Source: an uncultured Alphaproteobacteria bacterium
GTDB lineage: Bacteria > Pseudomonadota > Alphaproteobacteria > Rhizobiales > Xanthobacteraceae
NCBI GenBank assembly: GCA_963709855.1
Contig: CAVPXX010000012.1
Span: 18,269-50,268, forward strand
Length of the DNA: 32,000 nucleotides
Reading direction: 5' to 3'
Part shown: one piece after another, positions 7,574 through 25,901 of the stretch
Numbering within the stretch: the stretch's first letter is position 1
Layout: each line of letters opens with the position of its first letter
Notes under the pieces: model-generated
The model's input: the letters and a program-made list of their open reading frames with translations, nothing else
Told to the model about the DNA's origin: nothing
The model's database searches: none
Position numbers and translations under genes: made by a program

Positions 7574-7691
7574 TGGATATATGCGGTATAATTTGCCCGT
7601 AGTCCTCGTGCTGACGGGCCGATCTAATGAGGCCGCGCCGTTTAGGCCGTCGGTGCTCTGAGCTACGCGACAATACCGGCTCAGGCTGCTC

Positions 7692-8516: not shown

Positions 8517-8529
8517 GCGGGCGAACAAT

Positions 8530-8616: not shown

Positions 8617-8618
8617 CT

Positions 8619-8975: not shown

Positions 8976-9043
8976 TGGTCACTCCGAAAGCGGCATGCTT
9001 GGCACCGTCGAAGCGTTCGAATTCATATCGAATAGTTGTTCGT

Positions 9044-10458: not shown

Positions 10459-11064
10459 ATGCGACGCCTAATTGTTGGCATGACCGGTGCAACCGGCGCA
10501 ATTTTCGGTGTGCGAATACTTGAGGCACTTAAAGACTGCGACGTGGAATCGCATCTTGTAATTAGCAACTGGGCGCGGCGAACTATTGAGCATGAGACGC
10601 CTTACACCGTTAAACAAGTGTGTGCGTTGGCCAATGTTTACCACAATTCAGCGAACATGGCGGCGAAAATCTCCTCAGGCTCGTTTATTACCGATGGTAT
10701 GGTGGTGATACCGTGCTCGATGCGAACGCTGAGCGGCATCGCACACGGTTATGGCGAACACCTCATCCATCGTGCTGCCGATGTAATTCTCAAAGAACGG
10801 CGACGGCTGGTGCTCGTCGTGCGCGAGTCGCCGTTATCCGAATTGCACCTCGAAAACATGCTGAAGCTAGCCCGCGCGGGGGCATCGATAATTCCGCCAA
10901 TGCCTGCCTTTTACAACCATCCAAAATCTATCGATGATATCGTCGACCATATCGTGGCGCGTGTGCTTGACCAGTTCGGCATCACTGCGCGTTTTGCCAA
11001 GCGCTGGGACGGCAAAATGAAGATGACGTCCCAGCTAAATGCCGAGCCGACGGACAACAACTAA
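10459..11064 (+). CDS. ubiX: UbiX-family flavin prenyltransferase (prFMN synthase).
   Basis: MRRLIVGMTGATGAIFGVRILEALK...VIPCSMRTLSGIAHGYGEHLIHRAADVILKERRRLVLVVRESPLSELHLENMLKLARAGASIIPPMPAFYNHP is a textbook UbiX/Pad1 sequence. The ribosome-binding site is GAAAGGAAAAG. Confidence 0.92.
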   Translation: MRRLIVGMTGATGAIFGVRILEALKDCDVESHLVISNWARRTIEHETPYTVKQVCALANVYHNSANMAAKISSGSFITDGMVVIPCSMRTLSGIAHGYGEHLIHRAADVILKERRRLVLVVRESPLSELHLENMLKLARAGASIIPPMPAFYNHPKSIDDIVDHIVARVLDQFGITARFAKRWDGKMKMTSQLNAEPTDNN

Positions 11065-11074
11065 TGGCCGCGCC

Positions 11075-11833
11075 ATGACTGCGGTAAATGCCTTACATCG
11101 GGGATTGGCTATCCTGCGTGCGATCAATGACGGCCACGTGCAGCTTCGCGAGATCAGCGCGGCTGCCAAACTGCCGAAGTCGACAATCGCTCGCATGTTG
11201 GAAACCTTGGTCGCCGATGGCTACGTGGCCCAGGATAGTGAGAAAGGTTATCACGTTACCGCGCGTGTCTTGACCCTCTCGCGCGGCTATAACGCCCACG
11301 AGTTCCTGCTCAAGGCGGCGCAACCCGTTTTGGAGGGCCTGCGTAAACATCAGGTCTGGCCGAGCGATCTTGCGGTATTCGATCAAGACGCCATGGTTGT
11401 TCTCGACACTGGCCGTGATCCGGGCACATTGTCGCTCAACCGTACCGTCGGGTCGCGCCTGCCGGTGCTGGTGACGTCGCTTGGCCGCGCTTTTCTCGGC
11501 TTCGCCGACGACGAGCTGGTTGACCGGACGCTTTCCCGCCTAGCCCGATCGACTGATGCTTTTGATGCGCCGGCAAAGAATGCCGCCGCTGTGCGACGCG
11601 TGCTCGGCCAAGTCCGGCGGCAAGGTTATGCGACCGGCGATCGCGAATACCAGCGTACCACCCGTACTCTTGCGGTGCCGGTCCTGGTCAATTCCGCGCC
11701 GGTGGCGAGCCTAAACATCATGGTGGTGCCAAGCGCGATGAGAATGGAGCAATTGGTGAAAAGCCTGCTGCCGGCGCTAAGCGCCGCCGCCAGGACAATA
11801 GGCACCGCGCTAACGCAAACGTCGCCGGGCTGA
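11075..11833 (+). CDS. IclR-family transcriptional regulator.
   Basis: N-terminal wHTH (ALHRGLAILRAINDGHVQLREISAAAKLPKSTIARMLETLVADGYV) and a C-terminal effector domain (GRAFLGF..., GYATGDREYQRTTRTLAVPV). ATG 11039, which overlaps ubiX, is an alternative start. Confidence 0.85.
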   Translation: MTAVNALHRGLAILRAINDGHVQLREISAAAKLPKSTIARMLETLVADGYVAQDSEKGYHVTARVLTLSRGYNAHEFLLKAAQPVLEGLRKHQVWPSDLAVFDQDAMVVLDTGRDPGTLSLNRTVGSRLPVLVTSLGRAFLGFADDELVDRTLSRLARSTDAFDAPAKNAAAVRRVLGQVRRQGYATGDREYQRTTRTLAVPVLVNSAPVASLNIMVVPSAMRMEQLVKSLLPALSAAARTIGTALTQTSPG

Positions 11834-11984
11834 TGTAGCAGTACAACAAGTTGGCATTTTCGCGCCAGCAGTGAAATCCCGATCCCTTTCTGCGGGCTAA
11901 TACTGAAGCCTCTGGAACAATTGATTTTTCTAGCGTTGCCCACAACCGTTTCGCAGTGTGGCCTATTCGCTGCGTTCCATCTAG

Positions 11985-11999
11985 CGGAATGACATTCCG
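11985..11999. promoter_or_regulatory. 15-bp palindrome; candidate IclR operator upstream of ubiD paralogue 1.
   Basis: CGGAATG-A-CATTCCG (7-bp arms) lies about 100 bp upstream of ATG 12098. It is nested inside a wider inverted repeat, CTAGCGG (11981-11987) / CCGCTAG (12027-12033). Confidence 0.35.
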
Positions 12000-12097
12000 A
12001 AAATGCTTGAGACGAGTTGCGAGACCCGCTAGCGTCACTCGTTTTTGGCGTGCGCCGGTTCGTGCCGCCGTCATCTCGCGCGGGAAGAGGTACGCAA

Positions 12098-13759
12098 ATG
12101 AACAAGATTGTCGACGTGCCGCTCGTCGGTTCGCATAAGCCTCAAGCGACCAATGCTATCGGCGAAAACCCGATCGCGGATTTGCGTGAATGGTTGGAAC
12201 GGGTGGAGGGAATTGGCGAGTTGACCCGAGTGCAACAGCCGGTTGACCGCGACGAAGAAATGAGCGCGATCTCATATCTGGTCGCCAAACAGCACCCCTC
12301 GCCGGCTGTCCTATTTGAGCGACCGCGCGGTTTCGAAAAGAGCGCAATCGGCGCCAGGATGTTGTGGAATATTCTCGGCCCCAGTGTGAAGCGCGTCGCG
12401 CTCACGCTTGAGGAACCGGCGGATACGCCGACAGTCGAATTGATCCGGCGTGTAAAGGACAAGCTCAAGCGGCGTCTGCCGCCGCAGGAGGTGTCTGCTG
12501 ATCAAGCTCCGGTCTATGAGAATACCGTCACTGGAAAAAATATTGATTTGAATTTGTTGCCGATCCCGCGGCACTGGCCGCTCGATGGCGGCCGTTATGC
12601 CGGCACCGCCGACGCGGTGATTACCCGCGATCCTGACAGCGGTTATCTCAATATCGGCACCTATCGAATGATGCTGCAGGGAAAGTCACAGGTCGGGCTC
12701 TACCTTTCGCCCGGCAAGGACGCACGTTTGCACATCACTCGGGCGTGGCAACAGGGCAAGTCCATCAATGTCGCCGCCGCCTGGGGCATCGATCCCCTGT
12801 TCATGTTGGTTGGCTCGCAGACATTTCCCAAGAATGTGTCCGAATACGAATACGCCGGCGGCATTAAGGGCCAGCCGATACCGGTCGTTCGCGGCATGAC
12901 GACCGATCTTCTGATCCCCGCCAACGCGGAGCTCGTTGTTGAAGGTGTTGTCCGGCCAAATTCGGTGAAATCGGAAGGACCGTTCGGGGAGTTTCCCGGT
13001 TATTACGGCCGGCCTGAAGCCGGCTGTCCGCTCGTCGACATCACCGCAGTGCACTACCGATCACAGCCAATTCTGACCAACGCCCTGATGGCGGATTATC
13101 CATCCTGCGAACAGAGCGGCTTTTTCTCGGTGATTCGATCAGCAAAGATCTGGGACGATCTCGACAAGCTCGGCATCCCCGGAATCCACGGGGTCTATTC
13201 GCATCCAGCGGCCGCGGGCGGGTTCGGCATGACCGTCATCAGCCTTGAACAGCGTTACGCCGGCCATGCCGCTCAGGTGCTGGCACTCGCGGCCCAGGTT
13301 CCCGGCGGCGCCTACTACACGAAATGGATTATTGCCGTCGACGAGGACATCGACCCGACCGACATGGATCAGGTGATCTGGGCGATGGCGAGCCGGTGCA
13401 ATCCGATCGACGACATCGATATCCTGCGCAACACTTGGAGTACCTGGCTCGATCCCACCCAGAACCCGCCGGAAAAGCGGCCTTACGGCTCGAAGGCGCT
13501 GATCAACGCTTGCAAAGAGCATCGCCACCTTCCGGTTTTTTCCAAACGCACCACGCTGCGTAAGAAAATCTACGATCAGGTTGCTGCGCGTTGGACGGAA
13601 CTTGGCTTGTCGGGCGAGGCTCCGGCCGTGCGGGCGTTCGAAGCCGAGAGTACGGTCACGTATCACGAGGTCGGCGGGTTCGAACCTGGGCGCCAGCCGG
13701 GCGAGAAAAAGCCGATGGACAAGACAAACAACAAGAAAATCAAAAAAAAGAAGATGTGA
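12098..13759 (+). CDS. UbiD-family prFMN-dependent (de)carboxylase, paralogue 1.
   Basis: ATG 12098 follows GGGAAGAGG. UbiD hallmarks are present: LNIGTYRMM, SEYEYAGG, EGPFGEFPGYYG, IIAVDEDIDPTDMDQVIWAMASRCNP. It has an unusual Lys-rich tail, NNKKIKKKKM. Confidence 0.9.
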   Translation: MNKIVDVPLVGSHKPQATNAIGENPIADLREWLERVEGIGELTRVQQPVDRDEEMSAISYLVAKQHPSPAVLFERPRGFEKSAIGARMLWNILGPSVKRVALTLEEPADTPTVELIRRVKDKLKRRLPPQEVSADQAPVYENTVTGKNIDLNLLPIPRHWPLDGGRYAGTADAVITRDPDSGYLNIGTYRMMLQGKSQVGLYLSPGKDARLHITRAWQQGKSINVAAAWGIDPLFMLVGSQTFPKNVSEYEYAGGIKGQPIPVVRGMTTDLLIPANAELVVEGVVRPNSVKSEGPFGEFPGYYGRPEAGCPLVDITAVHYRSQPILTNALMADYPSCEQSGFFSVIRSAKIWDDLDKLGIPGIHGVYSHPAAAGGFGMTVISLEQRYAGHAAQVLALAAQVPGGAYYTKWIIAVDEDIDPTDMDQVIWAMASRCNPIDDIDILRNTWSTWLDPTQNPPEKRPYGSKALINACKEHRHLPVFSKRTTLRKKIYDQVAARWTELGLSGEAPAVRAFEAESTVTYHEVGGFEPGRQPGEKKPMDKTNNKKIKKKKM

Positions 13760-13864
13760 GGCCCGGCTCGGTCCGCTCGAGCGATCATAAGAAATGTTCG
13801 TAACAACCTTGCTACTCCCGACGTTCCGTCGCGCACCCTCTCTGTAACGTGGAGTACTTCAATC

Positions 13865-15325
13865 ATGGCTTCCAATATCCATCCGAAAGACATGCGAACA
13901 TGGATCGCAGAATTGGAGGAAGCTGGTGAACTTATTCGTATATCCAAACCGGTCGACCCGCTCACACAGATGGGCTCACTACTCTATCAATCGCGAGAAA
14001 AGGCGCTTTTCTTCGAAAAACTACCGCATGGCTGGCGCTCGCTCGGTCAAGCCCCGGCAAATACTCGCCATGCGGCCATCGCCTTCGGCGCCAACCAAGA
14101 AACCATGGTGCCATTGATCGCCGAGCGCATGGGCAAACGCATTGCGCCGGTGATGGTCGAGGACGGGCCGGTCAAGGAGGTCAAGCTCGGCAAGAATGAA
14201 TTCGATCTCACGCATCTTCCGGTTCATGTCGCCGGCCAACGCGACGGCGGCCCGGTGATCGGCTCAGGCCTTGTCGTGTCGAAGGACCCCGACACCGGGC
14301 AGCGGAACGTGAGCTTCCATCGCCTCCAGATCAAGGGGCCTAACAAATCCGGCATTCTGCTTTACCCCCGCCATACCTGGAAGAACTACGTAAAATATCA
14401 AGCGCGAAACGAACCGATGCCGGTTGCAATCTTTATCGGTCACTATCCGCTCTATTACGCCGCGGCGGCGACGACAGCTGCCTATGGGCTCGATGAATTT
14501 GAGATTGCTGGTGGCTATCTCGGTGAGCCTGTGCGCCTCGTAAAATGTGAGACAGTGGATCTCGAGGTTCCTGCCGACGCGGAGATCGTTCTTGAGGGTC
14601 ATATCCCGCCGAATTATCGTGAGGAAGAAGGACCGTTTTCTGAATTTCAAGACTACTATGTGACCGGCACAGGCAAAAATCCGATCGTTGAGTACCAGTA
14701 CATGACGCGCCGGCACGACGCGATCTTCAAAAATCTCCAGAACGGTTCGGAGATGGAGGGTTGCGTCTTTCATAAAATCCCAATGAGCGCAGCCATATTC
14801 CGGCGACTCAAGGATGTCGGTGGTGGTCCCAATCTGCACAATGTGATGGTGATGCCCGGCGTTTTCGGAGTGGTTGTGCAAATGACGCCGCGGGCCTATG
14901 GCGAAGCCAAGAATCTGCTGTTGGCAGCGCTATCGTCCGAATACCAGCATCCGAAAGTTGCCATGGCAGTCGATGCGGATGTCGACATCTTCAATCCATC
15001 AGAGCTGATGTGGGCGCTTTCGACGCGCGTTGATCCGCAAAAAGATGTGACGATTATCTCCGGCACACATAATCACGCCATGGACGCAAGCTTGGCGGAG
15101 CTCGGCGCGCCAGGGACGCCTCTTTGGCAGCGCTTTGGGTCGAAGATGCTGATCGATGCGACGATTCCACCGCCAGCCGATGCCGAAGCCCGCGCGATGT
15201 TCGAACGCATTCGGCCGCGCAACCCGCAACTGCGGCTCGAAGATTTCGCTGCTGAAAGCTCTCTCCCGCTAGTTCGCGCCCTTTCCCCGATGTTCTTTGG
15301 GTCAAAGCTCTTGGGCGAACGCTGA
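13865..15325 (+). CDS. UbiD-family prFMN-dependent (de)carboxylase, paralogue 2 (divergent from paralogue 1).
   Basis: 486-aa ORF with a GTGGAG ribosome-binding site. Motifs: NVSFHRLQI, DEFEIAGGYLGEPV, EEGPFSEFQDYY, VAMAVDADVDIFNPSELMWALSTRVDP. Confidence 0.9.
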   Translation: MASNIHPKDMRTWIAELEEAGELIRISKPVDPLTQMGSLLYQSREKALFFEKLPHGWRSLGQAPANTRHAAIAFGANQETMVPLIAERMGKRIAPVMVEDGPVKEVKLGKNEFDLTHLPVHVAGQRDGGPVIGSGLVVSKDPDTGQRNVSFHRLQIKGPNKSGILLYPRHTWKNYVKYQARNEPMPVAIFIGHYPLYYAAAATTAAYGLDEFEIAGGYLGEPVRLVKCETVDLEVPADAEIVLEGHIPPNYREEEGPFSEFQDYYVTGTGKNPIVEYQYMTRRHDAIFKNLQNGSEMEGCVFHKIPMSAAIFRRLKDVGGGPNLHNVMVMPGVFGVVVQMTPRAYGEAKNLLLAALSSEYQHPKVAMAVDADVDIFNPSELMWALSTRVDPQKDVTIISGTHNHAMDASLAELGAPGTPLWQRFGSKMLIDATIPPPADAEARAMFERIRPRNPQLRLEDFAAESSLPLVRALSPMFFGSKLLGER

Positions 15326-15403
15326 ACCTGAGGAACTCGCAATAACAATGAGATCTGCAGTACCAATGGTTCGATGCGCCCGATAATGTGTGTGGAGGCT
15401 AAA

Positions 15404-16369
15404 ATGTCGAAACGGTGGCTTTGCACGATTGCACTGTTGTTGATGAGCTTCGGCACCCAATCATGGGCGCAGAGCTGGCCAAGCAAGCCTATCCGGGCGA
15501 TCGTGCCGTACAGTCCCGGCAGCGCGACTGACATCATTCCGCGCACGATTTTTGCCAAGGTCCAAGAACAACTGGGCCAGCCGATTATTGTCGAAAATCG
15601 TCCCGGGGCATCGAGCACGATTGGCACCGTAACGGTGGCAAAGGCTGAGCCCGATGGCTACACGATCCTAGTCGCCTCCTCGGCCTATACCATCGTGCCA
15701 TTGACAGTTGCGAATTTGCCCTATGATCCGTTGCGCGACCTGGTGGCGGTAACCCCGTTGGCCAATATGGCCAATGTGCTGGTTGTCTCTCCGGACAAAG
15801 CAGTCAAGACCGTCGGCGAGTTCGTCACAGCGGCTCGAGCGCGGCATGGATCGATGAATTATGTCACCATCGGAGAAGGAAGCGCGGCACATCTCAATTC
15901 CGTGCGGTTTCTTCGTGCCGCGGGCTTCGAAGCACAGCCGATACCCTATAAAGGGTCGCCGGCAGGGCTGACCGACGTCATGACCGGGCGGGTCGACTTT
16001 TATTTCTGTCCGCTGTTGCCTGCGCTTTCTCTGATTCGCGACGGCAAGCTCACGGCGCTGGCGGTGAGTAGCTTGGATCGCTCACCTAAATTGCCCGACG
16101 TGCCAACCACCATCCAAGCCGGGTTCCCGAACTCCGAGTATAATTTCTGGTTCGGTGTGTTCGCGCCCGCCAAAACTCCACCCACCATCATCCAACGGCT
16201 TTATGAGGAGATTACCAAGGCACTGCACGATCCGGGTGTGCAGGAAAAGTTGTCGAATCTCGGCGTCCAGCCGATGCCCATGACGCCGGCCCAGTTTGAT
16301 GACTATGTCCGCAAGGAACTCGAGCAAAACGCGGTGCTCGTGAAGGCAGCGGGCATCAAAGCTCAATAA
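15404..16369 (+). CDS. Bug/TctC-family (tripartite tricarboxylate transporter) periplasmic substrate-binding protein.
   Basis: ATG 15404 follows GGAGG. The signal peptide is MSKRWLCTIALLLMSFGTQSWAQ. Family motifs: WPSKPIRAIVPYSPGSATDIIPR, ENRPGASSTIG, PDGYTILV, IPYKGSPAGLTDVMTGRVDF. Confidence 0.88.
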   Translation: MSKRWLCTIALLLMSFGTQSWAQSWPSKPIRAIVPYSPGSATDIIPRTIFAKVQEQLGQPIIVENRPGASSTIGTVTVAKAEPDGYTILVASSAYTIVPLTVANLPYDPLRDLVAVTPLANMANVLVVSPDKAVKTVGEFVTAARARHGSMNYVTIGEGSAAHLNSVRFLRAAGFEAQPIPYKGSPAGLTDVMTGRVDFYFCPLLPALSLIRDGKLTALAVSSLDRSPKLPDVPTTIQAGFPNSEYNFWFGVFAPAKTPPTIIQRLYEEITKALHDPGVQEKLSNLGVQPMPMTPAQFDDYVRKELEQNAVLVKAAGIKAQ

Positions 16370-16409
16370 CGGCGAACTCATTTGGCATCTTTGTCTATAG
16401 GAAAAGTCC

Positions 16410-17411
16410 ATGATCGTCGATTTTCAACATCATTTCACGCCGCGCGAACTGTTCAAAGAGGACTTGGGTGACAAGCTAATCATCGCTTTCGACGAAACGG
16501 GTGCGCCGAGCTACACTTCGCACAAATTGCTTTATGATCTGGATGAACACATCCGCATGATGGACGTCGCCGGTATCGACGCCGCCTTCTTGACTAGCGC
16601 CGCCGCGATGTGTGCCGATATCGAGCGGTCGAAACTGGTCAACGACAAGGCCAAGCAAGCCGAGCGCGACTATCCGGGGCGCTTCATCGGAGCCGCCCAT
16701 GCCCATCCGCTGGGCGGCGCGCAGGCATTCAAGGAGCTGGCGCGCTGCGCACACGAGCTTGGCTTCCCGGGCGTGGTCATCACGTCGGAAGCCGATGGGC
16801 TGTTCCTCGATGCTCCGGAATACGAACCGTTCTGGACGGAAGCTGAAAAACTCGGACTGTTCGTTTTCGTACATCCGGCGCTGAAGCTGAATTTCCCCCA
16901 GCAGTTCGACGCCTACGACACGGCGCGCTCGGTCGGGCGTGAATTCTCGCTGATCATGGCCACGATTCGGTTGGTCAATGGCGGCGTCTTCGACCGCCAT
17001 CCGTCCCTCATGGTGCATATGGCGCACCTCGGCGGCGGCATCGCTTCCATGCTCGGCCGCATTCGCAGCTATCAGGACAAGGACTTCTGGGGCTTGCGCG
17101 GCAACGCCAAGCATGGCCGCACCTGCGAGAAGGATTTCGATTACTACCTGCGCAACAACTTCATGTTCGACACCGCCGGCTTCTGCGGCGCCATCGGCAG
17201 CGTCAAGACGGCATTGGTGGAGATTCCGGCCGAGCGCATCGTCTTCGCCACCGACTACCCGCAGGAGATTCGCGGGCGCGAGGTGGTGCGTGATTTCGTC
17301 CGCGATATCCGCAAGCTCGGGCCGGTCGGCGAGAAAATTATGTGCGGCAATGTCGATGTATTGCTGAAAGGGTGGAATTTGCCCCCTTCGAAGCCGTTAA
17401 AGATCCGGTAA
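16410..17411 (+). CDS. Amidohydrolase-2 family protein (PF04909; ACMSD / LigW / resorcylate-decarboxylase-like).
   Basis: 333-aa ORF. An N-terminal VDFQHHF motif, FVHPA, HLGGG and FATDYPQE match the metal-site pattern of the PF04909 decarboxylase/hydrolase family. The reaction type cannot be read from the sequence. Confidence 0.75.
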   Translation: MIVDFQHHFTPRELFKEDLGDKLIIAFDETGAPSYTSHKLLYDLDEHIRMMDVAGIDAAFLTSAAAMCADIERSKLVNDKAKQAERDYPGRFIGAAHAHPLGGAQAFKELARCAHELGFPGVVITSEADGLFLDAPEYEPFWTEAEKLGLFVFVHPALKLNFPQQFDAYDTARSVGREFSLIMATIRLVNGGVFDRHPSLMVHMAHLGGGIASMLGRIRSYQDKDFWGLRGNAKHGRTCEKDFDYYLRNNFMFDTAGFCGAIGSVKTALVEIPAERIVFATDYPQEIRGREVVRDFVRDIRKLGPVGEKIMCGNVDVLLKGWNLPPSKPLKIR

Positions 17412-17531
17412 AGGCGACGAAGGAACAGCCTAAAACACTGAGCATGGCGGAGGAGACCTTGACGATGGTCAAGGTCATTTTGGATGAGCCCGACTATTCA
17501 ACTTAAAGAAAAATAGCTGTTTGGCGCCGTC

Positions 17532-19205
17532 ATGCGGCTCGGGAAAGCCAGCCGGCAAATGCTGCAAGGATGCACAGCTTGGCCCGAGGAATCAGCTCGC
17601 CGCTATCGGCGGCAGGGCTATTGGGCTAACTTAACGCTCTACGACATGTTGCTCCATTCGGTCGTTGCCTCGCCGGACCGTATCGCGTTGGTGCACGGCG
17701 CGCGGCGCCTCAGTTATGCGGAACTTCGTATCGCGATCAACCGGCTGGCCGGCCACCTGATCGATCTTGGATTTCAGCCCCTTGATCGTGTCGTGTTCCA
17801 ACTGCCCAATTCGATCGAGTTTGTCATCGCGTTCTTTGCGCTGCTAAGCATTGGCGTGATCCCGGTACTGGCACTACCGGCGCATCGACGTGAAGAAATC
17901 GCGCACATATTCGCTCGCACGAAAGCGGCGGGCTACGTCGTGCCCGACCGCTGGCACGGCTACGACTATCGATTGCTCGCTGCGGAAATGTCCAGCTTGG
18001 CACCGTCGCTGCGCAACGTGCTCGTGCTCGGTGAGCCCGGCCCCAATCAGATATCCTTGAGCGACCTGCTTGCGCATGACGGTAGCCGCGACGACAACGC
18101 CAGGGCCCTCGCCGGCTTCTCCCCGGCGCCCAATGAAGTCGCCCTGATGCTGCTGTCGGGCGGAACGACGGGCCTGCCGAAGCTCATCCCGCGCACGCAC
18201 GACGATTACGTCTATAATTGCCGCCAGTGCGGCACCGTCGCCGGCTTCAACGCCGCGACCGTGTTCCTGGCCTTGCTGCCGATGGCGCATAACTACACGC
18301 TCGGCTGTCCCGGCGCGCTTGGCGCGCTGGCCCACGGCGGCACGGCCGTGATTGCACCGGACGCGAGCATCGAAACCGTCGCTCGCTTGATCGAAACCGA
18401 GCGCATCACGGTTATCTCCGCTGCCGTTCCGTTAATCGTCAACTGGCTGAACGCCGATCTTCCTCAACATCGCGATTTTTCCAGCATGCGCGTGGTGATG
18501 AACGGCGGCGCGAAGCTCGCGCCGGAACTGCGCCGCCGGGTCGAGCAGCGATTTGGCTGTACGTTTCAGGAGAGCTTTGGCACTGGCGAGGGGCTGCTGA
18601 ATATGACCCGCCTCGACGATCCAGCCGAAATTCGCTTCACCAGCTCCGGGCAGCCAATATCGCCGGCCGATGAGATCCGCATCGTTGACGAGGCGGGCAA
18701 TGACGTTCCGGATGGCACCGTCGGTGAACTGATCTGCCGCGGCCCGTATACCGTTCGCGGCTACTACAATGCCCCGCAAAAAGATCGCGCCGCCTTCACC
18801 AGTGACGGCTATTACCGCATGGGCGACATGGTGCGCCGGGTTGACGGCAATCTCTATGTCGAGGGACGCCTGAAGGACATCATCAATCGTGGCGGCGAAA
18901 AGATCAGTTGTGAGGAAGTCGAAAGTTACATTTTGGGCCATCCCAAGATCAAGAACGTCTGCGTGGTGGCAATGCCTGATGCTACGTTCGGCGAAAAGGC
19001 CTGCGCGTTCGTGATTCCAGTTGCAGGCAAGACAGTCGATTTGGACGAGATCAAAGGCTTCTTATTGGGCCGCAATATCGCGAAGTTCAAGTTGCCCGAG
19101 CGGCTCACGGTCGTGAACGAGTTTCCAATCAGCCCGGCCGGTAAAATTCTTCGCCGCGAACTACGTCAAGTTGCGGCGAAATCGATCGCGAACGCTCGTG
19201 CTTGA
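17532..19205 (+). CDS. Aryl-acid adenylating enzyme of the EntE/DhbE (2,3-dihydroxybenzoate-AMP ligase) type; possibly an aryl-CoA ligase.
   Basis: WPEESARRYRRQGYW, LLSGGTTGLPKLIPRTHDDYVYN, YRMGDMV, GRLKDIINRGGEKIS and PISPAGKILRREL are ANL-superfamily core motifs, and the N-terminus closely resembles EntE. The start could be ATG 17532 or ATG 17559. Confidence 0.85.
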   Translation: MRLGKASRQMLQGCTAWPEESARRYRRQGYWANLTLYDMLLHSVVASPDRIALVHGARRLSYAELRIAINRLAGHLIDLGFQPLDRVVFQLPNSIEFVIAFFALLSIGVIPVLALPAHRREEIAHIFARTKAAGYVVPDRWHGYDYRLLAAEMSSLAPSLRNVLVLGEPGPNQISLSDLLAHDGSRDDNARALAGFSPAPNEVALMLLSGGTTGLPKLIPRTHDDYVYNCRQCGTVAGFNAATVFLALLPMAHNYTLGCPGALGALAHGGTAVIAPDASIETVARLIETERITVISAAVPLIVNWLNADLPQHRDFSSMRVVMNGGAKLAPELRRRVEQRFGCTFQESFGTGEGLLNMTRLDDPAEIRFTSSGQPISPADEIRIVDEAGNDVPDGTVGELICRGPYTVRGYYNAPQKDRAAFTSDGYYRMGDMVRRVDGNLYVEGRLKDIINRGGEKISCEEVESYILGHPKIKNVCVVAMPDATFGEKACAFVIPVAGKTVDLDEIKGFLLGRNIAKFKLPERLTVVNEFPISPAGKILRRELRQVAAKSIANARA

Positions 19206-19217
19206 GGATCCCTTGCC

Positions 19218-20633
19218 ATGAAATTATTCGAACGCTTAAATGTCGGCGGGATGACCATTCCCAATCGCGTGATGGTTCCGGCGATGGTGACACGGCTTTC
19301 CGGCGAGGACGGCCTGGTCAATAAGGACATCAGCGACCGTTATGTCCGTTACTCGCAGGGCGGCGCGGGTCTCATTGTGATCGAGGCCATGGCGGTCCAT
19401 GCCGCCAAATCCGGTCCGCTGCTACGCATCAACGACGATAAGTTCGTGCCGGGCCTCACCGATCTGGTTCGGCGCATCCATGACGCATCGGACTCCAAGA
19501 TAGTCCCGCAGATCATCCACTTCATGAAAGTGGCCAAATCGGGCTGGCGGCAGACGATCGATATGCTGTCGTTGGTCGAGATCGACCGCATCGTCGAGGA
19601 ATTCGGCGACGCGGTTGCGCGGGCGCGCGCTGCCGGATTCGACGGCGCGGAGCTGCATTCGGCCCACGCCTACACGCTGGCATCGTTTCTGTCGCGCGCC
19701 AATCCGCGCTTGGACGACTATGGCGGCGACACGCTGGAAGGGCGCCTGCATTTGATCGGAAGGATTTTTGGAAACATTCGCCGCAAGGTCGGCGACGACT
19801 TTCCCGTCGGCGTCCGCTTCCTGGCTGACGAATTCATCAAGGATGGTTACACCGTCAACGATGCCAAACTCATCGGCCTACGGCTGGCTCAACTCGGCGC
19901 GGCGTATTTGTCATTATCCGTGGGTGGCAAGTTCGAGGATGCCATCCACGCTCCCGGCCAAGTGCCCTACCCCTACACCGGCTATTCGGGCGACCGCTGC
20001 ATGCCGGGCGACTGGTATCCGGCAGTGCCACACGCGCACTTTTCGGCGGAGATCAAAACCTTTATCAGGGCGCATGGTTTCAATACGCCGGTCGCTACCG
20101 CCGGCAAAATCTCCAACCCCGACGACGCCGAGCGGCTGGTGGCGACCGGCGCTGTCGATATTGTCGGCATCGCACGCGGTCTCCTGGCCGACCCGGATTG
20201 GCCGAACAAGGTTCGTCGCCGCGACTTCGATCGCATCGTGAAATGTGACTACTGCAACGTATGCAAACATCTCGACGGCACGCACACTCGCGTCATATGC
20301 GCGCTTTGGCCGCAGGGCTCGCTGCAGGCACCGCCGGACGATAGCTCGAGCGAAGCGCCGTGCTGGAGCGCGGAAGGCGCAAACCTGACGGCAACAATGG
20401 GTAATGGCAAGGTCACACTGAAATGGAACAAGGCAGCCGGCGCCGCACGCTACGATGTTTGCCGGACCGACCCGCTCGGCAATGTCGAGATCGCGGACGC
20501 CGTCAAGGTTACGCGGTGGGAGGATCATGGCCTGCTGGCAGGCATGCCATATCGCTATCACGTGTGTGTCTACGGTGCCGCCGGGTGTGGTGGCGCCACC
20601 TCGAACACGGTCAGCGTGTCATTGCCTAGCTGA
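19218..20633 (+). CDS. Old-yellow-enzyme-family FMN oxidoreductase with a CxxCxxCx11C motif and a C-terminal fibronectin-III-like domain.
   Basis: The OYE TIM-barrel signature is present: MTIPNRVMVPAM, GGAGLIVIEA, FDGAELHSAHAYTLASFLS, DDYGG, VDIVGIARGLLADPDWPNK. Cys343/346/349/361 lie at 20244-20300. The tail (20367-20630) reads ANLTATMGNGKVTLKWNKAAGAARYDVCRTDPLGN...RWEDHGLLAGMPYRYHVCVYGAAG...SNTVSVSL. Confidence 0.85.
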   Translation: MKLFERLNVGGMTIPNRVMVPAMVTRLSGEDGLVNKDISDRYVRYSQGGAGLIVIEAMAVHAAKSGPLLRINDDKFVPGLTDLVRRIHDASDSKIVPQIIHFMKVAKSGWRQTIDMLSLVEIDRIVEEFGDAVARARAAGFDGAELHSAHAYTLASFLSRANPRLDDYGGDTLEGRLHLIGRIFGNIRRKVGDDFPVGVRFLADEFIKDGYTVNDAKLIGLRLAQLGAAYLSLSVGGKFEDAIHAPGQVPYPYTGYSGDRCMPGDWYPAVPHAHFSAEIKTFIRAHGFNTPVATAGKISNPDDAERLVATGAVDIVGIARGLLADPDWPNKVRRRDFDRIVKCDYCNVCKHLDGTHTRVICALWPQGSLQAPPDDSSSEAPCWSAEGANLTATMGNGKVTLKWNKAAGAARYDVCRTDPLGNVEIADAVKVTRWEDHGLLAGMPYRYHVCVYGAAGCGGATSNTVSVSLPS

Positions 20634-20669
20634 GTGCCACTTTCAGGAATTTCCTAAAATCCCGACCAA

Positions 20670-21137
20670 CTACGCCGAAATTTCGAGCGTCTCCTTGTGG
20701 CCAAAGCCCTTTGTATTGTCGATCAGAACGATGCGAGCCGGCTGCAATCGATAGACGGCCGTTCGCGCATAGGCGTCGCGTAATTTCAATGGGCCCGCAG
20801 CCAATTGCCGAAGGAAAGGGTAACGCGCTTCAAGTTGTGCAAGGTGCCGCATTCGTTCATCCGCCGCTAGGATACGGCGGGCCGCACCAGCGATCTGCAC
20901 GCCCCGAATTGTCGCAAAATCCGAATAATCGGGCGCCACCGTGGCTGCCACACGAGGATCCGCATCGATGTCCCGGGAATGCTGCGTATCGGGCTCAGAT
21001 ACCCAGACGAGCGCCAACCCCTCGCATGCATAAAACAGGTTCGTCGCATGCGCTCCGGCCGCACCACATGTAGCGAGCGACATCACGTGGTGCCCTGCGA
21101 GAAAGGAACGAATCTCGTCGCTTAAGTTTGTATTCAT
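20670..21137 (-). CDS. Pyridoxamine 5'-phosphate oxidase-family (FMN-binding split-barrel) protein.
   Basis: 155-aa ORF with ATG at 21135-21137. The pattern FLAGHHVMSLATCG...NLFYACEGLALVWVSEPDTQHSRDI...ATVAP...IRGVQIAG is typical of small PNPOx-like proteins. Confidence 0.65.
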   Translation of the reverse strand: MNTNLSDEIRSFLAGHHVMSLATCGAAGAHATNLFYACEGLALVWVSEPDTQHSRDIDADPRVAATVAPDYSDFATIRGVQIAGAARRILAADERMRHLAQLEARYPFLRQLAAGPLKLRDAYARTAVYRLQPARIVLIDNTKGFGHKETLEISA

Positions 21138-21250
21138 ATTAGCTATTGCTCATCGTCTGTCGTGTGGAGATCTCTGCGGCAAGATCACCCAAAATGCAAT
21201 TGACCGAATCGCCGGCCGGGATTCGAACTATAACTTCGGCGTCGCAAAGT

Positions 21251-21853
21251 TTATCGCTGGCCGCCGCGCAGCAACATCATGAACCGGGCCTGATCGCTCG
21301 CCTTTTCGCGGAACGTACCCTCGAAATGCGTAGTAATGGTTTTGGTGCCGAGCCTGTCGATCCCGCGTATTGACATGCAAATATGTTCGGCTTCAATCAT
21401 CACCGCGACGCCGCGAGGCTTAAGAATCTGATTGATGGATAGTGCAATCTGCGAAGTGAGATATTCCTGGCTTTGTAGGCGTAGGGCATACGTATCGACC
21501 AGCCGCGCAAGTTTGGACAAGCCGACCACGCGATCCACCGGCATGTACGCGATGTGCGCCTTTCCGAAGAACGGCATCATGTGGTGTTCGCAATGCGAAT
21601 TGAAGGTTATGTCCTTCACCAGCACAAAATCGTCATAGCCGGCTGTTTCGGTGAACGTGCGATCAAGCACCTCGGCAGGCGATTGGCGGTAACCTTCGTA
21701 GATTTCATCGAACGCGTCGATCACCCGTTTCGGTGTATCGCGCAATCCTTCACGGTTCGGGTCGTCGCCGATATACGCAATCAGCGTGCGAACGGCGGCT
21801 TCGGTCTCCGCGCGCGAGGGACGTGGAACCAATGGAACCGGCGCGAAAAGCAT
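21251..21853 (-). CDS. folE: GTP cyclohydrolase I.
   Basis: [58 protein letters not shown] and [15 protein letters not shown] are canonical FolE type I motifs. An in-frame stop lies 3 codons upstream of ATG 21853. Confidence 0.92.
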
Positions 21854-22113: not shown

Positions 22114-22566
22114 TCACGATGCTGGCTTGCGTTTGAGCAGGAAGGCCTGAATGGCGTCTTGCACCACCTCGCCGCGTTGATTGAGAACCCTCAATTCGCG
22201 CTTCATCACCCCACGCTCACGGTTTGACGTTTCGCGTTTTTCCAGCACCTTGAGCCTGGCATGAATGGTGTCGCCGGGCTTCACCGGCTTGGTGAATTTA
22301 AGGCTATCGAAGCCGAGAAAGGCGATCAGCGTGTCGTCGTAGAGATGGAGCTGGAAGATCAGGCCGGCCGCGATGGCATAGACCAGCGGTCCATGCGCGA
22401 TGCGACCGCCGAATTGCGTCTGCTTGCAATACTCTTCATTTATATGGAGCGGATTGTAGTCGCCCGACAGCCCCGCGAACATGACGATGTCGGCTTCGGT
22501 GACGGTTCGTGCCGGGCTTTCGAATTCCGCACCGATTTCCCATTCTTCCCAATAGAGTCCTCGCAT
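22114..22566 (-). CDS. MaoC-like (R)-specific enoyl-CoA hydratase / dehydratase (single hot-dog fold).
   Basis: ATG 22564-22566 follows GAAGGAAGG; the track start at 22587 is a TTG. The sequence TVTEADIVMFAGLSGDYNPLHINEEYCKQTQFGGRIAHGPL is the MaoC hydratase motif. Confidence 0.85.
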   Translation of the reverse strand: MRGLYWEEWEIGAEFESPARTVTEADIVMFAGLSGDYNPLHINEEYCKQTQFGGRIAHGPLVYAIAAGLIFQLHLYDDTLIAFLGFDSLKFTKPVKPGDTIHARLKVLEKRETSNRERGVMKRELRVLNQRGEVVQDAIQAFLLKRKPAS

Positions 22567-22594
22567 TACACGCCTTCCTTCATTCAATTGAACG

Positions 22595-23800
22595 TTACTT
22601 GCGGTTTGTTTGACCGACCGCGCCGCTTTCGCGCAGGGCCGTAATCTCGTCGGCCGAAAGACGCAACAACGTCTTCAGAACGGCATCGGTATGTTCGTCC
22701 AGCATCGGCGCCGGCCGGGATATCGTCCTCACCATATCCGACATCTTGATGGGGTTGCCAGGCAGCCGTACTTTGCCAACCTGCGGATGGTCGTATTCGA
22801 CGATCATCTCGCGCTCCTTTACCGGTGGCTCCGCAAAAGCCGCGTCGACATTGTTCACCGGCGCCGCCGGCACATCCGCGGCGTGCAGCCGTTCCAGCCA
22901 GTCCGCGGCCGTCCGGCTGCGGAATATCTGCTCAAGCAGGGGTACCAGCACCGTGCGGTTCTTCACCCGGCTCGCATTGTCGGCAAAACGCGCATCGCCG
23001 GCGAGATCGGGATGGTCGAGCACGGTGCACAGCTTGCGCCAAAAGGCTTCCTGCCGGGTTGCGACGACGATGTAGCTATCCGCGGTCGCGAAGGCCTGCC
23101 ACGGAACGGAATAATCATGCGCTGAGCCTGGCGGCTTCGGCACTTCGCCGTTCGACAGCCACATGGTACCGATATAGCTCAACAAGTGGAGCATGGTGTC
23201 AAACATCGAGATTTCGACCCGGCGCCCTTTACCGGTGCGTTCGCGATCGAATAGCGCCGCTAAGATCCCTTTGCTTGAATAAATCCCACCACTAATATCG
23301 GCGAGCGGAATGCCGACCCGCACCGGCGGACGTCCGGGCTCGCCGGTGATCGCCATATGGCCGCTGATCGCCTGGATATTGAGGTCGAGCGCCGGATAGT
23401 CCTTGTATTCGCCAGCACTGCCGAAGCCGGTGACGGAGCATTGGATGATGCGCGGGTTGATGCCGCTGAGCGTCGGATAATCGATCTGGAGACGTTCGAG
23501 GACGCCGGGACGGAAGTTGTCGATCACGACATCGGACACCTTCACCAGATCGTAGAAGAGCTGGCGTCCGGCCGCGGTCTTGAGATTGATGACGACGCTC
23601 TGTTTGTTGCGATTGAACGTGAGAAACAGTCCGCTCAGCCCGCGGTACGGAGCAACCGACGGGATGCGGCCGAGATCGCCCTCGGGCGTCTCGATCTTGA
23701 TCACCTCGGCGCCGAGGTCCGACAGCACTTGGCTGCCGTAGGTGCCGGCGATAATCTGGCCGAGCTCCAGGATTCTGACGCCTTCGAGCGGATACGACAT
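22595..23800 (-). CDS. Family III (CaiB/BaiF) CoA-transferase.
   Basis: The real start is ATG 23798-23800, giving MSYPLEGVRILELGQIIAGTYGSQVLSDLGAEVIKIETPEGD, followed by NRNKQSVVINLK and ITGFG-like motifs. The 636-aa track ORF is an artefactual upstream extension that overlaps the acyl-CoA dehydrogenase gene. Confidence 0.88.
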   Translation of the reverse strand: MSYPLEGVRILELGQIIAGTYGSQVLSDLGAEVIKIETPEGDLGRIPSVAPYRGLSGLFLTFNRNKQSVVINLKTAAGRQLFYDLVKVSDVVIDNFRPGVLERLQIDYPTLSGINPRIIQCSVTGFGSAGEYKDYPALDLNIQAISGHMAITGEPGRPPVRVGIPLADISGGIYSSKGILAALFDRERTGKGRRVEISMFDTMLHLLSYIGTMWLSNGEVPKPPGSAHDYSVPWQAFATADSYIVVATRQEAFWRKLCTVLDHPDLAGDARFADNASRVKNRTVLVPLLEQIFRSRTAADWLERLHAADVPAAPVNNVDAAFAEPPVKEREMIVEYDHPQVGKVRLPGNPIKMSDMVRTISRPAPMLDEHTDAVLKTLLRLSADEITALRESGAVGQTNRK

Positions 23801-23859
23801 TCCCTGCGTTCCCGACAAACCACGCGTAGACGGCGTCGCGAGTAGCGTGCGCCGTTGAG

Positions 23860-25002
23860 TTAAAGTCCCAGGCCGCGCGCGATAATGTTGCGCTGAATCT
23901 CCGAAGTTCCGCCGCCGATGACGGCCAAGCGCGAGTCGCGAAAGAACCTTTGCATCGGATATTCCATGCAGTAGCCATAGCCGCCGAATATCTGCAGTCC
24001 GAAGTCGGAAACCGCCTTGTAGGTTTCGCCGGTGTAGAGCTTCAACACCGCGGCATCGCTGCGCGTGGCTTGGCCCTTCGATACAAGCCACGCGAACCGG
24101 TAGACCAACGTGCGCGACACATCGAGCATCACCTTCATGTCGGCGAGCTTGTGCGAGATTGCCTGGAACTGGCCAATCGGCCGCCCGAACTGTTTGCGAC
24201 TTTTCGCGTAATCGAGCGCGTAGTCGAACGCGGCGGAGGCGGCGCCTGTGCGCGCGGCGGACAAGCAGAGCCGCTCGTACCACAGGTAAGAATCGACTGC
24301 TTCCCAGCCGCGGTCGACTTCGCCAAGCAGCGCTGAGGCGGGCACCTTCACGCTGCTGTAGAAGACCTGTGTGGTGCCGATGGCGCGCTGACCGAGCGTC
24401 TTGATCTTGCGCACCTCGATTCCGGGCAACTTGGTATCGACGAGAAAGTTGGTGATGCCTTGCTGCTTCTTGGCGCCGGTCGATGTGCGCGTCACCAGCA
24501 GGCAATAATCGCTGATATCCATGCCTGAGGTGAAAACCTTCTGCCCGTCGATCACAAAGCCGCCGTCGACCGCCTTCGCGCGGGTGGTCAATGCGGCGGC
24601 ATCGGAGCCGGACGCCGGCTCGCTAAGCCCGAAACAGAACGACAACTCCCCGCGCGCGATTTTGGGCAGCAATTCCTGCTTCTGCGCCGACGTGCCGTGC
24701 TGTAGCACGGCGTAGCCGCCGTAAGTGAGGGTGCGGAACAGCCACATCGCGAGTTCTTCGAAGTGCCTGCCGGTCTCTTCCAGCAGGATGGCGAGGTCGA
24801 TCGCCGAACCGCCGGTGCCTCCAAACTCGGCGGGGATCGGCAGGCCGAACCATCCGTGCTTCGCGAGCGCCTGGTAGGCTTCGCGCGGCGGCCGCTCCTC
24901 GTTGTCGCATCGCTCCGCATAGTCCGGCGGGCAGACATGATCGAGCAATTCTTTCGCGTGCGCGCGCAACGCCTCCTGATCCTGCGAGAACGAAAAATCC
25001 AT
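23860..25002 (-). CDS. Acyl-CoA dehydrogenase.
   Basis: MDFSFSQDQEALRAHAKELL..., CFGLSEPASGSD, QKVFTSG and the C-terminal LQIFGGYGYCMEYPMQRFFRDSRLAVIGGGTSEIQRNIIA are ACAD hallmarks. An alternative GTG start at 25011 overlaps the upstream TGA as GTGA. Confidence 0.9.
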   Translation of the reverse strand: MDFSFSQDQEALRAHAKELLDHVCPPDYAERCDNEERPPREAYQALAKHGWFGLPIPAEFGGTGGSAIDLAILLEETGRHFEELAMWLFRTLTYGGYAVLQHGTSAQKQELLPKIARGELSFCFGLSEPASGSDAAALTTRAKAVDGGFVIDGQKVFTSGMDISDYCLLVTRTSTGAKKQQGITNFLVDTKLPGIEVRKIKTLGQRAIGTTQVFYSSVKVPASALLGEVDRGWEAVDSYLWYERLCLSAARTGAASAAFDYALDYAKSRKQFGRPIGQFQAISHKLADMKVMLDVSRTLVYRFAWLVSKGQATRSDAAVLKLYTGETYKAVSDFGLQIFGGYGYCMEYPMQRFFRDSRLAVIGGGTSEIQRNIIARGLGL

Positions 25003-25007
25003 TGCGG

Positions 25008-25901
25008 TCACCCAGGCCGGTCGAGATTTGCAAGTTCGAGAACCCGGCGGGCGCGCTGGGCCATCGCGTAGTCCACCAGTTTTCCTTCAACGACGATTGC
25101 GGCGGTGCCCGCCATTTCCGCGGCCGCGAACTCGGCCGCCACCTTTTGATAATAGGCGAGTTCGCCCGCAGGGACGGCATAGGCGCTTTTGACCGGCGCA
25201 ATCTGTTTGGGATGAATGACGGTGCGGCCGATATAGCCAAGGCGCGCCGACAGATGAGAATCCGCGATCAGTCCGAGCTCGTCATTAAGATCACTAAACA
25301 CGCCGTCGAGCGGATGGATATGGCTGCCGGCCGCGCGGGTATCTAACAATACCTTGGAGCGAGCATACAACAGCTCGGTGCCCTCGATTGACCAGGCGCA
25401 ACCAAGGTCGGTTTGCAGATCGCCGTCCCTAGCGCTGCCGAAGCAAGTTGCCCCGACGCGCGGCGAAGTCTTGATAAGGTTGAAGCAATTGTAGACGCCC
25501 AAGGCGTTTTCGATCTGCAGGATAATTTCGGCCGAGCCTTGCTTCATGCCGTGCTGCGATTCATTGCGCTCGATCGCAGTTGCGGTTTGCTGCACGTCCT
25601 CGACGTTTTCCGCCTTGGACAGCAGGATTGCGTCGAGGCCAGGCCGCACCACGGCATCAAGATCGTCGATGAGAAGCCCAGTCGTCGCAGCGTTCACGCG
25701 GACATAAATCAACGCCCGCGATGAAGATCCGGCCGCGGCGTCGATGGTCTTGGCAATCAGGGCCCGGGCCTCGGGCTTCGACGCCACCGGCACCGAATCC
25801 TCAAGGTCGAGAATGACCGCGTCGGCGCCGCTCTCCAACGCCTTGGCCATCACCCGCTCCTTGATCCCCGGAGCAAACAGTGCGGTGCGCACAGGCTTCA
25901 T
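25008..25901 (-). CDS. HpcH/HpaI aldolase / citrate-lyase-beta (CitE)-like acyl-CoA lyase.
   Basis: RTALFAPGIKERVMAKALESGADAVILDLEDSV..., followed by a CitE-like body. ATG 25899-25901 follows GGAG. Confidence 0.82.
   Translation of the reverse strand: MKPVRTALFAPGIKERVMAKALESGADAVILDLEDSVPVASKPEARALIAKTIDAAAGSSSRALIYVRVNAATTGLLIDDLDAVVRPGLDAILLSKAENVEDVQQTATAIERNESQHGMKQGSAEIILQIENALGVYNCFNLIKTSPRVGATCFGSARDGDLQTDLGCAWSIEGTELLYARSKVLLDTRAAGSHIHPLDGVFSDLNDELGLIADSHLSARLGYIGRTVIHPKQIAPVKSAYAVPAGELAYYQKVAAEFAAAEMAGTAAIVVEGKLVDYAMAQRARRVLELANLDRPG

Follow-up and report, generated by a model that had tools for sequence, protein, structure and literature searches.

A widespread family of truncated, putatively iron-sulphur old yellow enzymes with a C-terminal fibronectin type III domain and an aryl-acid ligase partner

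Introduction

Old yellow enzymes (OYEs) that carry an iron-sulphur (Fe-S) cluster are of interest in anaerobic aromatic, bile-acid and bilirubin metabolism and in biocatalysis. They are usually described as two-part enzymes, in which a module that binds flavin adenine dinucleotide (FAD) and NAD(P)H feeds the cluster. In 2,4-dienoyl-CoA reductase (DCR), 2-naphthoyl-CoA reductase (NCR), trimethylamine dehydrogenase (TMADH) and histamine dehydrogenase the cluster carries catalytic electrons, which in TMADH and histamine dehydrogenase are passed outward to an external acceptor. Here we describe a protein encoded in a stretch of 32,000 nucleotides (the window; positions 18,269 to 50,268 of contig CAVPXX010000012.1, assembly GCA_963709855.1) from an uncultured alphaproteobacterium of the Xanthobacteraceae, in which an OYE flavin barrel is followed by an Fe-S motif of four cysteines and by a small fibronectin type III (FN3) domain that replaces the usual FAD/NAD(P)H module (Table 1). 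The initial annotation of the window, made from its letters, knew of no described fusion of this kind, and we likewise found no description of an OYE-FN3 fusion, or of this protein family, in the literature. The family is best seen as a widespread, uncharacterised subfamily of truncated Fe-S OYEs whose members end in a cryptic FN3 domain and have an aryl-acid ligase as a conserved partner.

Among the 2-enoate reductases, 96% of sequences carry the FAD/NAD(P)H part (PMC11759058). Short forms of the bilirubin reductase BilR are PF00724-only proteins of the DCR-like branch that lack fused flavodoxin and NADP(H) domains and depend on a separate flavodoxin-like protein, BilS; an HGDR motif at the position of DCR Y166 defines BilR (PMC10769871). 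The window protein resembles DCR (FadH, 1PS9), the 2-enoate reductases and NCR (6QKG) in that the flavin mononucleotide (FMN) barrel runs directly into a C-x2-C-x2/3-C-x11/12-C motif, and the substrates of these relatives are coenzyme A (CoA) thioesters or enoates. It differs from them in that their FAD and NAD(P)H part of some 300 residues is missing, with FN3 in its place, in that a His/His pair is kept in the active site, and in that it scores far below the curated cutoffs of the profiles that define them. The FAD/NAD(P)H module of the DCR, 2-enoate reductase and TMADH branch appears either to have been lost or never to have been present here, and a single FN3 domain to stand instead.

On balance we lean towards the view that the protein is a cytoplasmic oxidoreductase with FMN and a [4Fe-4S] cluster, that its substrate is an (ortho-hydroxy)aryl- or alicyclic-CoA thioester and that it exchanges electrons with a partner acting in trans. 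We infer which cofactors are bound, that CoA is the acceptor, what class the substrate belongs to, which way electrons flow and what the FN3 domain does and, since no donor gene is conserved nearby, the partner itself purely so. The reaction is probably one more variant of known ene-reductase and acyl-CoA redox chemistry.

Domain architecture and the FN3 tail

As the initial annotation had stated, the usual module is missing: no FAD/NAD(P)H-binding domain (for example PF07992) is found among the Pfam and NCBIfam matches of the 471-residue protein, in which these scans detect nothing beyond PF00724 and the FN3 tail, and the polypeptide stops at residue 471, 110 residues past the Cys motif. The protein is therefore a non-canonical member of the Fe-S flavoenzyme branch that includes DCR, 2-enoate reductase, NCR and TMADH.

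The tail is an FN3 domain by homology and by fold, though not by the Pfam threshold. Of the two Pfam models that the initial annotation had named, Oxidored_FMN matches strongly (136.9 bits, E=1.3e-39, cutoff 27; residues 2-216 plus a second stretch), but fn3 (PF00041) reaches only 13.8 bits (E=0.07) on the window tail alone, under its cutoff of 25. The profile of the exoglucanase CbhB reaches the FN3 region of the protein (E=0.003), and direct detection by Pfam and NCBIfam alike stays below threshold. An exhaustive phmmer search with residues 335-471 against 1.84 billion representatives returned 6737 matches at E<=1e-3, headed by giant proteins in which up to 43 stretches in tandem match query positions ~46-133; in four such proteins that were scanned, the repeats are recognised by Pfam fn3 at E values from 1e-29 to 1e-77. 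Tails of other family members score for fn3 on their own in 15 of 31 cases at E<=0.01 (best 1.1e-5). A tail-only AlphaFold model, built on an alignment of 14 sequences, is all beta, with a predicted local distance difference test (pLDDT) score of 91.2 and a predicted template-modelling (pTM) score of 0.82. It folds as an FN3 sandwich, and FN3 domains make up most of the top 50 Foldseek matches that this model has in the PDB (probability 1.00, TM-score 0.65-0.79), among them the Fn3 of CtXyl5A (5G56), the FN domain of PTPRZ, an Fn3-like protein of C. thermocellum (3MPC), Robo3 and integrin beta-4. With the bacterial modules of this set (5G56, 3MPC) the tail shares the fold and detectable sequence homology; it differs from them in setting, since those modules act outside the cell as spacers or in adhesion and usually come in tandem, whereas here a single copy ends a cytoplasmic redox enzyme.

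The FN3 domain is kept in every member of the family and yet evolves faster than the rest of the protein, with a mean pairwise identity of 0.56 (here and below, identities given as fractions and invariant columns refer to an alignment of 44 family members). Its invariant residues belong mostly to the FN3 core (L401, W403, G442, Y445, Y447, G456), to which K405, R416, K430, W434 and D436 are added; W403, Y445 and Y447 agree with the core Trp of strand B and Tyr of strand F that mark the seven-stranded FN3 sandwich. Fast evolution combined with invariance mainly in the fold core is more in keeping with a structural cap, a spacer, an oligomerisation module or a loosely specific docking module than with a catalytic element. 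Only the linker in front of the domain is more variable (identity 0.46, 0 invariant columns, low pLDDT), and its reading frame is kept throughout.

Bacterial FN3 domains usually belong to secreted glycoside hydrolases or giant surface proteins, which could suggest that the tail is an artefact of assembly or annotation, or that the protein is secreted or surface-bound; we give this next to no credence. A word-indexed search recovered more than 100 protein clusters at 77-100% identity over 100% of the query. In a species scan, with one genome per species, 224 genomes held a relative, and the best 80 loci, each from an independent genome, span query residues 1-465/471 at 60-94% identity, with a single locus that extends only to residue 449, where its contig ends. 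The open reading frame (ORF) is thus conserved from end to end in 80 species genomes down to 60% identity, and with the variable linker staying in frame an artefactual fusion can be ruled out; no stop codon has been lost around 20310-20370, an error that the initial annotation had considered. Even a 274-residue fragment with 47% identity in the tail still holds the C-terminus of Oxidored_FMN and an fn3 domain. As for secretion, the N-terminus (MKLFERLNVGGMTIPNRVMVPAM) already forms the first hairpin of the barrel, starting with its first strand, and no signal or Tat peptide is present there, as judged by eye and in keeping with the initial annotation; moreover, the gene appears to be translationally coupled to that of a cytoplasmic ATP-dependent ligase.

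The fusion is found in Alpha- and Betaproteobacteria, including Xanthobacteraceae (Pseudolabrys, Undibacter, Rhodoplanes), Rhodospirillales, Burkholderiales and Sterolibacterium; further hosts are the isolate Roseiarcus fermentans DSM 24875, whose orthologue lies at 10001-11425 of locus L071, and a metagenome-assembled genome of 'Candidatus Cybelea'. Pfam annotation of the 120 homologues listed consists of PF00724 only, and where a name is given it is 'NADH:flavin oxidoreductase' or '2,4-dienoyl-CoA reductase-like'. Since fn3 falls under the Pfam threshold on most members, databases name them plain 'NADH:flavin oxidoreductase' and the architecture is invisible to routine annotation.

The OYE barrel and its active site

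The barrel is well supported, with 140 OYE-family sequences of the PDB recovered by phmmer at E<=0.01 and a mean pairwise identity of 0.77 over residues 1-334 within the family. The best PDB matches are thermophilic-like OYEs (7O0T, E=1.8e-27; TsER 3HF3, 8e-26), followed by the Fe-S flavoenzymes DCR (1PS9, 1e-18), NCR (6QKG, 2.6e-18), histamine dehydrogenase (3K30, 7.5e-18) and TMADH (6.5e-16). A full-length AlphaFold model shows alternating strands and helices at a moderate pLDDT of 62.6; its top 50 Foldseek matches are all OYE-family barrels (probability 1.00), with TsER first, 1PS9 at rank 3, 6QKG at rank 10 and YqjM also matched. Among NCBIfam profiles the order is different, the highest scores being those of Fe-S members (BaiCD, 165.5 bits; mycofactocin OYE2, 159) rather than of NamA (108). 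The bili_reduct_N and long-form bilirubin reductase profiles match as well, and the profiles of Fe-S members span residues 3-362, Cys motif included. Every curated NCBIfam equivalog cutoff is missed by far, the best case being BaiCD with its 165.5 bits against 825.

The likeness to BilR lies in the lack of fused electron-transfer domains and in this coverage by the bilirubin reductase profiles. The differences are a score of 120.9 bits against a cutoff of 425, H150-A-Y152-T in place of HGDR, the FN3 domain, which BilR lacks, and the hosts, which here are Proteobacteria of soil and freshwater and for BilR gut Firmicutes. Among the neighbours of 83 related loci, neither a flavodoxin nor a ferredoxin family recurs that could supply a bilS-like adjacent gene, and membership of the BilR group is rejected on the low score, the replaced HGDR and the missing BilS.

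Three residues of the active site, H147, H150 and Y152, are invariant both in the 44-member alignment and in a second alignment (A1), which also supports the invariant columns of the insertion described below. By their match to solved OYEs, H147 and H150 would be the pair that binds the activating carbonyl and Y152 the tyrosine proton donor, at the position occupied in DCR by Y166. The H-x2-H-x-Y pattern, the best barrel similarity and the top structural matches are all shared with classical OYEs (YqjM 1Z41, TsER 3HF3, CaOYE 7O0T). These, however, are proteins of ~340-370 residues that lack both an Fe-S motif and any further domain, from which the window protein differs further by a shortened loop after beta-3 (~102-116) and a 37-residue insertion after beta-6 (residues 236-272). 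The initial annotation was right in finding an OYE barrel here, though that barrel is not fully standard. The insertion, GGKFEDAxHxPGxVxxPYxGYSGDRCMPGxWxP, is strongly conserved, with H244, Y253, R260 and C261 invariant; no counterpart was found in solved structures by PDB search, and it is modelled at pLDDT <50. It is probably a family-specific active-site or substrate loop, possibly a substrate-binding lid.

The four-cysteine motif

The motif lies where the initial annotation had placed it, with the codon of C343 starting at 20244 and that of C361 occupying 20298-20300, and its spacing is indeed that of the Fe-S flavoenzyme branch. When residues 285-381 alone were compared with the PDB, histamine dehydrogenase (E=9.7e-10) and TMADH (5.6e-9) came first. 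In the printed alignment KCDYCNVCKHLDGTHTRVICALWP stands opposite ECIGCNICVSGDLTMSPIRCTQNP, so that all four cysteines are in register with those of histamine dehydrogenase (3K30); with TMADH (1DJN) the first three are aligned, within the single stretch that is displayed. The spacing is the same in all 62 complete family members from other genomes, so the pattern is not due to chance, and the segment that holds it (residues 335-372) is the best-conserved part of the protein, with an identity of 0.80 and 17 of 38 columns invariant. The four cysteines are putative ligands of a [4Fe-4S] cluster. The likeness to TMADH and histamine dehydrogenase is greatest in this cluster-binding segment. In other respects these are different enzymes, namely amine dehydrogenases with covalent FMN and vestigial ADP-binding C-terminal domains; the window protein has no ADP domain, sits in an aryl-acid/CoA context and has T25 at the position of the TMADH cysteine that links FMN covalently (6-S-cysteinyl-FMN).

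These observations bear on one alternative, a self-sufficient NAD(P)H-dependent ene-reductase in which NAD(P)H reduces the FMN directly in a ping-pong mechanism, as in YqjM or TsER, with a structural, regulatory or redox-sensing cluster and an FN3 domain for oligomerisation or stability. The classical H-x2-H-x-Y site would suit such an enzyme, as would the closeness of 7O0T and TsER in the PDB (~1e-26, ahead of DCR at 1e-18), the first place of TsER among the structural matches of the full model and the lack of a conserved donor gene nearby. Yet the segment whose cluster would then carry no catalytic electrons is the most conserved of all and aligns with clusters that carry catalytic electrons, and the nearest profiles are those of Fe-S flavoenzymes (BaiCD and mycofactocin OYE2, well ahead of NamA). 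We regard this alternative as unlikely, though a serious contender.

The ligase partner and related loci

The OYE gene is the last of a same-strand cluster in the window and directly follows the gene of an aryl-acid ligase. No promoter-like site was found in 19000-21300, and a ribosome-binding site for the OYE gene overlaps the ligase stop codon (Table 1), so that the two genes are predicted to be co-transcribed and translationally coupled. The ligase scores 551.6 bits with TIGR02275, under the cutoff of 723; its best PDB matches are the salicylate-AMP ligase 5WM2 (E=7e-159) and then DhbE, and EntE is also among the closest types.

The pairing extends well beyond the window. In a comparison of 82 related loci, 59 have an orthologue of the ligase (>=45% identity) as a direct same-strand neighbour of the OYE gene, which it precedes (upstream) in 32 loci and follows (downstream) in 27. 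Gene order has thus changed between clades, and ligase adjacency has been retained. An aryl-CoA ligase also accompanies NCR.

Among the neighbours, the ligase is the one partner whose gene is conserved. When the 928 neighbouring ORFs were clustered de novo, the only families to recur besides the ligase were an SDR (22 loci, often directly upstream), Liv-type ABC uptake genes (9-14 loci) and MarR (9 loci). The UbiD, UbiX, TctC and Amidohydro_2 genes of the window are linked to the OYE gene in the closest clade only, in 4-11 of 82 loci, and are rejected as obligate partners on that count. The idea of a split FAD/NAD(P)H module, supplied by a neighbouring gene, is rejected too, no recurrent Pyr_redox gene being present among the neighbours. 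Single loci add enoyl-CoA hydratase, acyl-CoA dehydrogenase and aromatic FAD hydroxylase genes (all in locus L063), Amidohydro_2, PEP-utilising kinase-like genes and xanthine-dehydrogenase-family genes.

Among the related loci, a possible donor system of low potential dedicated to the enzyme was seen in L002 alone. Its OYE relative is 80% identical, and directly 5' of the ligase-OYE pair, on the same strand (3521-11437 of that locus), lies a complete set of genes for 2-oxoacid:ferredoxin oxidoreductase (four subunits: POR gamma, Fer4 delta, POR_N alpha, TPP beta), ferredoxin and a Pyr_redox_2/Rubredoxin_C reductase. Genes of the xanthine dehydrogenase family (FAD_binding_5, Fer2, MoCoBD) with XdhC/CoxE lie less than 10 kb from the OYE gene in L001 (15097-19012) and L002 (18778-21437) and recall 4-hydroxybenzoyl-CoA reductase-type enzymes. 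In L026, a set 3' of an SDR-OYE-ligase trio (13767-19525) comprises a MEDS/BTAD regulator, PPDK_N, Amidohydro_2 and a PEP-utilizers mobile-domain protein, and recalls the activation of phenol by a phenylphosphate-synthase-like system together with an ortho-(de)carboxylase.

The neighbourhood also bears on the direction of electron flow. The protein might work oxidatively, as do TMADH, histamine dehydrogenase and BaiCD, dehydrogenating an acyl-CoA or oxo-acyl-CoA and passing electrons through the cluster to an electron-transfer flavoprotein (ETF) or another acceptor and on to the respiratory chain. The Cys segment does match the two outward electron passers best, the top NCBIfam match is BaiCD, many hosts are respiring soil Proteobacteria, and the trio of SDR, Fe-S OYE and ligase parallels baiA/baiCD/baiB. 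Nevertheless, the H/H/Y site is typical of reductive ene-reductases, the cysteine for covalent 6-S-cysteinyl-FMN is missing (T25 in the alignment), ETF genes are not recurrent nearby and the ferredoxin-generating system upstream in L002 points to reduction. An oxidative role seems to us improbable.

Proposed function

The oxidoreductase with a trans-acting partner that we favour draws on three features. As the OYE gene is nearly always beside that of a salicylate-type ligase, the protein probably acts on an aromatic-acid thioester. The lack of an FAD/NAD(P)H module, together with the strongly conserved cluster, makes the cluster most simply an electron port to a partner in trans. From the classical His/His/Tyr site one would expect FMNH- to pass a hydride to a carbonyl-conjugated C=C, with protonation by the tyrosine, or the reverse reaction.

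In the sequence of events that we envisage, the ligase would activate an aromatic acid, probably ortho-hydroxylated or otherwise substituted, or a derived alicyclic acid. Its product would most likely be a CoA thioester, because the operon of the window is fully occupied and leaves no room for an aryl-carrier-protein gene. The barrel would bind the thioester with its carbonyl held by H147 and H150, the FMN would give a hydride to, or take it from, the conjugated C=C, and Y152 would handle the proton. By way of the four-Cys cluster, electrons would pass one at a time between FMN and a general redox partner encoded by a separate gene, such as a ferredoxin, a flavodoxin or an ETF. The FN3 domain would be structural and non-catalytic, and may cap the surface left by the missing domains or mediate oligomerisation or docking. 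By analogy, reliance on an outside partner would have precedents in TMADH and histamine dehydrogenase, whose clusters serve an outside acceptor, and in short BilR with BilS. The SDR, the Liv-type ABC genes, the genes of L063, Amidohydro_2 and the UbiD/UbiX genes of the window clade suggest a catabolic CoA context.

Several points weigh against this reading. Enzymes of the DhbE/EntE type normally charge carrier proteins, not CoA, and the CoA ligase activity is assumed from the missing carrier gene in the window; 21 of the 82 loci (5 of them with short flanks) have no adjacent ligase orthologue. In the 82-83 loci there is no recurrent ferredoxin, flavodoxin, ETF or Pyr_redox neighbour, and a scan that included small ORFs found a ferredoxin-type motif within 6 kb in 4 of 83 loci. 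The classical HxxHxY site could let NAD(P)H reduce FMN directly, with no need of a partner. The Cys region is modelled poorly (pLDDT 25-38 for residues 342-376 in the full-length AlphaFold model), and the conserved residues of the FN3 domain are chiefly fold determinants, with no positive sign of a docking surface. The idea of the initial annotation that FN3 might dock an external electron donor or another enzyme of the cluster finds neither support nor contradiction here.

A bolder idea, which we would call speculative and decidedly improbable, is that the family is an unrecognised class of ATP-independent aryl-CoA reductase of a minimal, 'type III-like' kind, in which an FMN barrel with one [4Fe-4S] cluster, fed by ferredoxin, dearomatises, or reductively dehydroxylates or deaminates, an ortho-substituted benzoyl-CoA made by the adjacent ligase, and the FN3 domain docks the low-potential donor. 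Its substrate may be salicylyl-, dihydroxybenzoyl- or 2-aminobenzoyl-CoA. To our knowledge, the enzymes that convert salicylyl-CoA or 2-aminobenzoyl-CoA to benzoyl-CoA anaerobically have never been identified.

Other genes of the window

Table 1. Coordinates of the OYE gene, its parts and the upstream genes, in positions of the window
Feature	Position	Strand	Basis
Whole OYE gene, 471 aa, ATG start (OYE barrel, four-Cys motif, linker, FN3)	19218..20633	+	ORF list
Oxidored_FMN TIM-barrel domain, residues 1-334	19218..20219	+	Pfam PF00724, PDB OYE matches, Foldseek
Active-site motif H147-S-A-H150-A-Y152	19656..19673	+	Invariant in family alignments; pairs with HxxHGY of solved OYEs
Family-specific insertion after beta-6, residues 236-272	19923..20033	+	Invariant columns; gapped against solved OYEs
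C343-x2-C346-x2-C349-x11-C361, putative [4Fe-4S] ligands	20244..20300	+	Alignment to 3K30/1DJN, family conservation
Variable Pro/Ser/Ala-rich linker, residues 373-388	20334..20381	+	Family alignment, low pLDDT
FN3 domain, residues 389-468	20382..20621	+	Homology via intermediates, family tails, fold model
Ribosome-binding site GAGGA	19204..19208	+	Overlaps ligase stop codon, 9 nt 5' of OYE ATG
Salicylate/2,3-dihydroxybenzoate-AMP-ligase-like aryl-acid ligase	17532..19205	+	TIGR02275, PDB matches
Upstream cluster (UbiX-like to Amidohydro_2)	10459..17411	+	Pfam, NCBIfam
UbiX-like flavin prenyltransferase	10459-11064	+	Pfam/NCBIfam
IclR regulator	from 11039	+	Pfam/NCBIfam
Two UbiD-family (de)carboxylases	12017-15325 (starts 12017, 13865)	+	Pfam/NCBIfam
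TctC binding protein	from 15374	+	Pfam/NCBIfam
Amidohydro_2 decarboxylase-like protein	from 16410	+	Pfam/NCBIfam

Upstream of the ligase, the Amidohydro_2 protein is closest to gamma-resorcylate, 5-carboxyvanillate, 2,3-dihydroxybenzoate and salicylate decarboxylases. The tandem UbiD paralogues are only 25-30% identical, and their best profiles are VdcC/VdcB and the alpha and beta subunits of phenylphosphate carboxylase; with the UbiX-like gene, the pair suggests a two-subunit (de)carboxylase for a phenolic or aromatic acid. The 580-residue UbiD ORF at 12017 probably starts later, UbiD_N beginning at residue 60. The GC content dips to 0.504 at 10001-11000, against 0.56-0.63 elsewhere, at the divergent intergenic region between a class II aldolase gene (-) and the UbiX-like gene (+).

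On the other side, genes for a small YhbP/PNPOx-like flavoprotein and GTP cyclohydrolase I (20670-21853, -) run convergently towards the 3' end of the OYE gene; the first of the two also accompanies the OYE gene in 8 related loci, in varying position and orientation. Beyond them, a module on the minus strand (22114-25901) encodes a MaoC-type (R)-hydratase, a family III CoA-transferase, an acyl-CoA dehydrogenase and a CitE/HpcH-like lyase, for which the best NCBIfam profiles are RipB/Ich, the succinyl-CoA:mesaconate and succinate-glutarate CoA-transferases and RipC/Ccl. The module resembles a set for the degradation of itaconate or another C5-dicarboxylate, and recurs beside the OYE gene only in locus L064. 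Within it, the 636-residue ORF at 22595-24505 (-) is over-extended, as CoA_transf_3 begins only at residue 240 and the ORF's 5' portion extends over the gene of the acyl-CoA dehydrogenase (23860-25011); its true start is probably near 23800.

Concluding remarks

In at least 80 species genomes, nature maintains a stable design in which the FAD/NAD(P)H module is gone and an FN3 sandwich, a fold otherwise typically extracellular, is fused in its stead. The tight pairing with a salicylate/2,3-dihydroxybenzoate-type ligase offers a testable entry to the substrate, as the ligase could be used to make candidate thioesters, and a cultured host, Roseiarcus fermentans DSM 24875, is on hand. Should the enzyme turn out to depend on ferredoxin, it would serve as a compact model of how electrons enter Fe-S flavoenzymes and as a candidate to fill missing steps in the breakdown of ortho-substituted benzoates.

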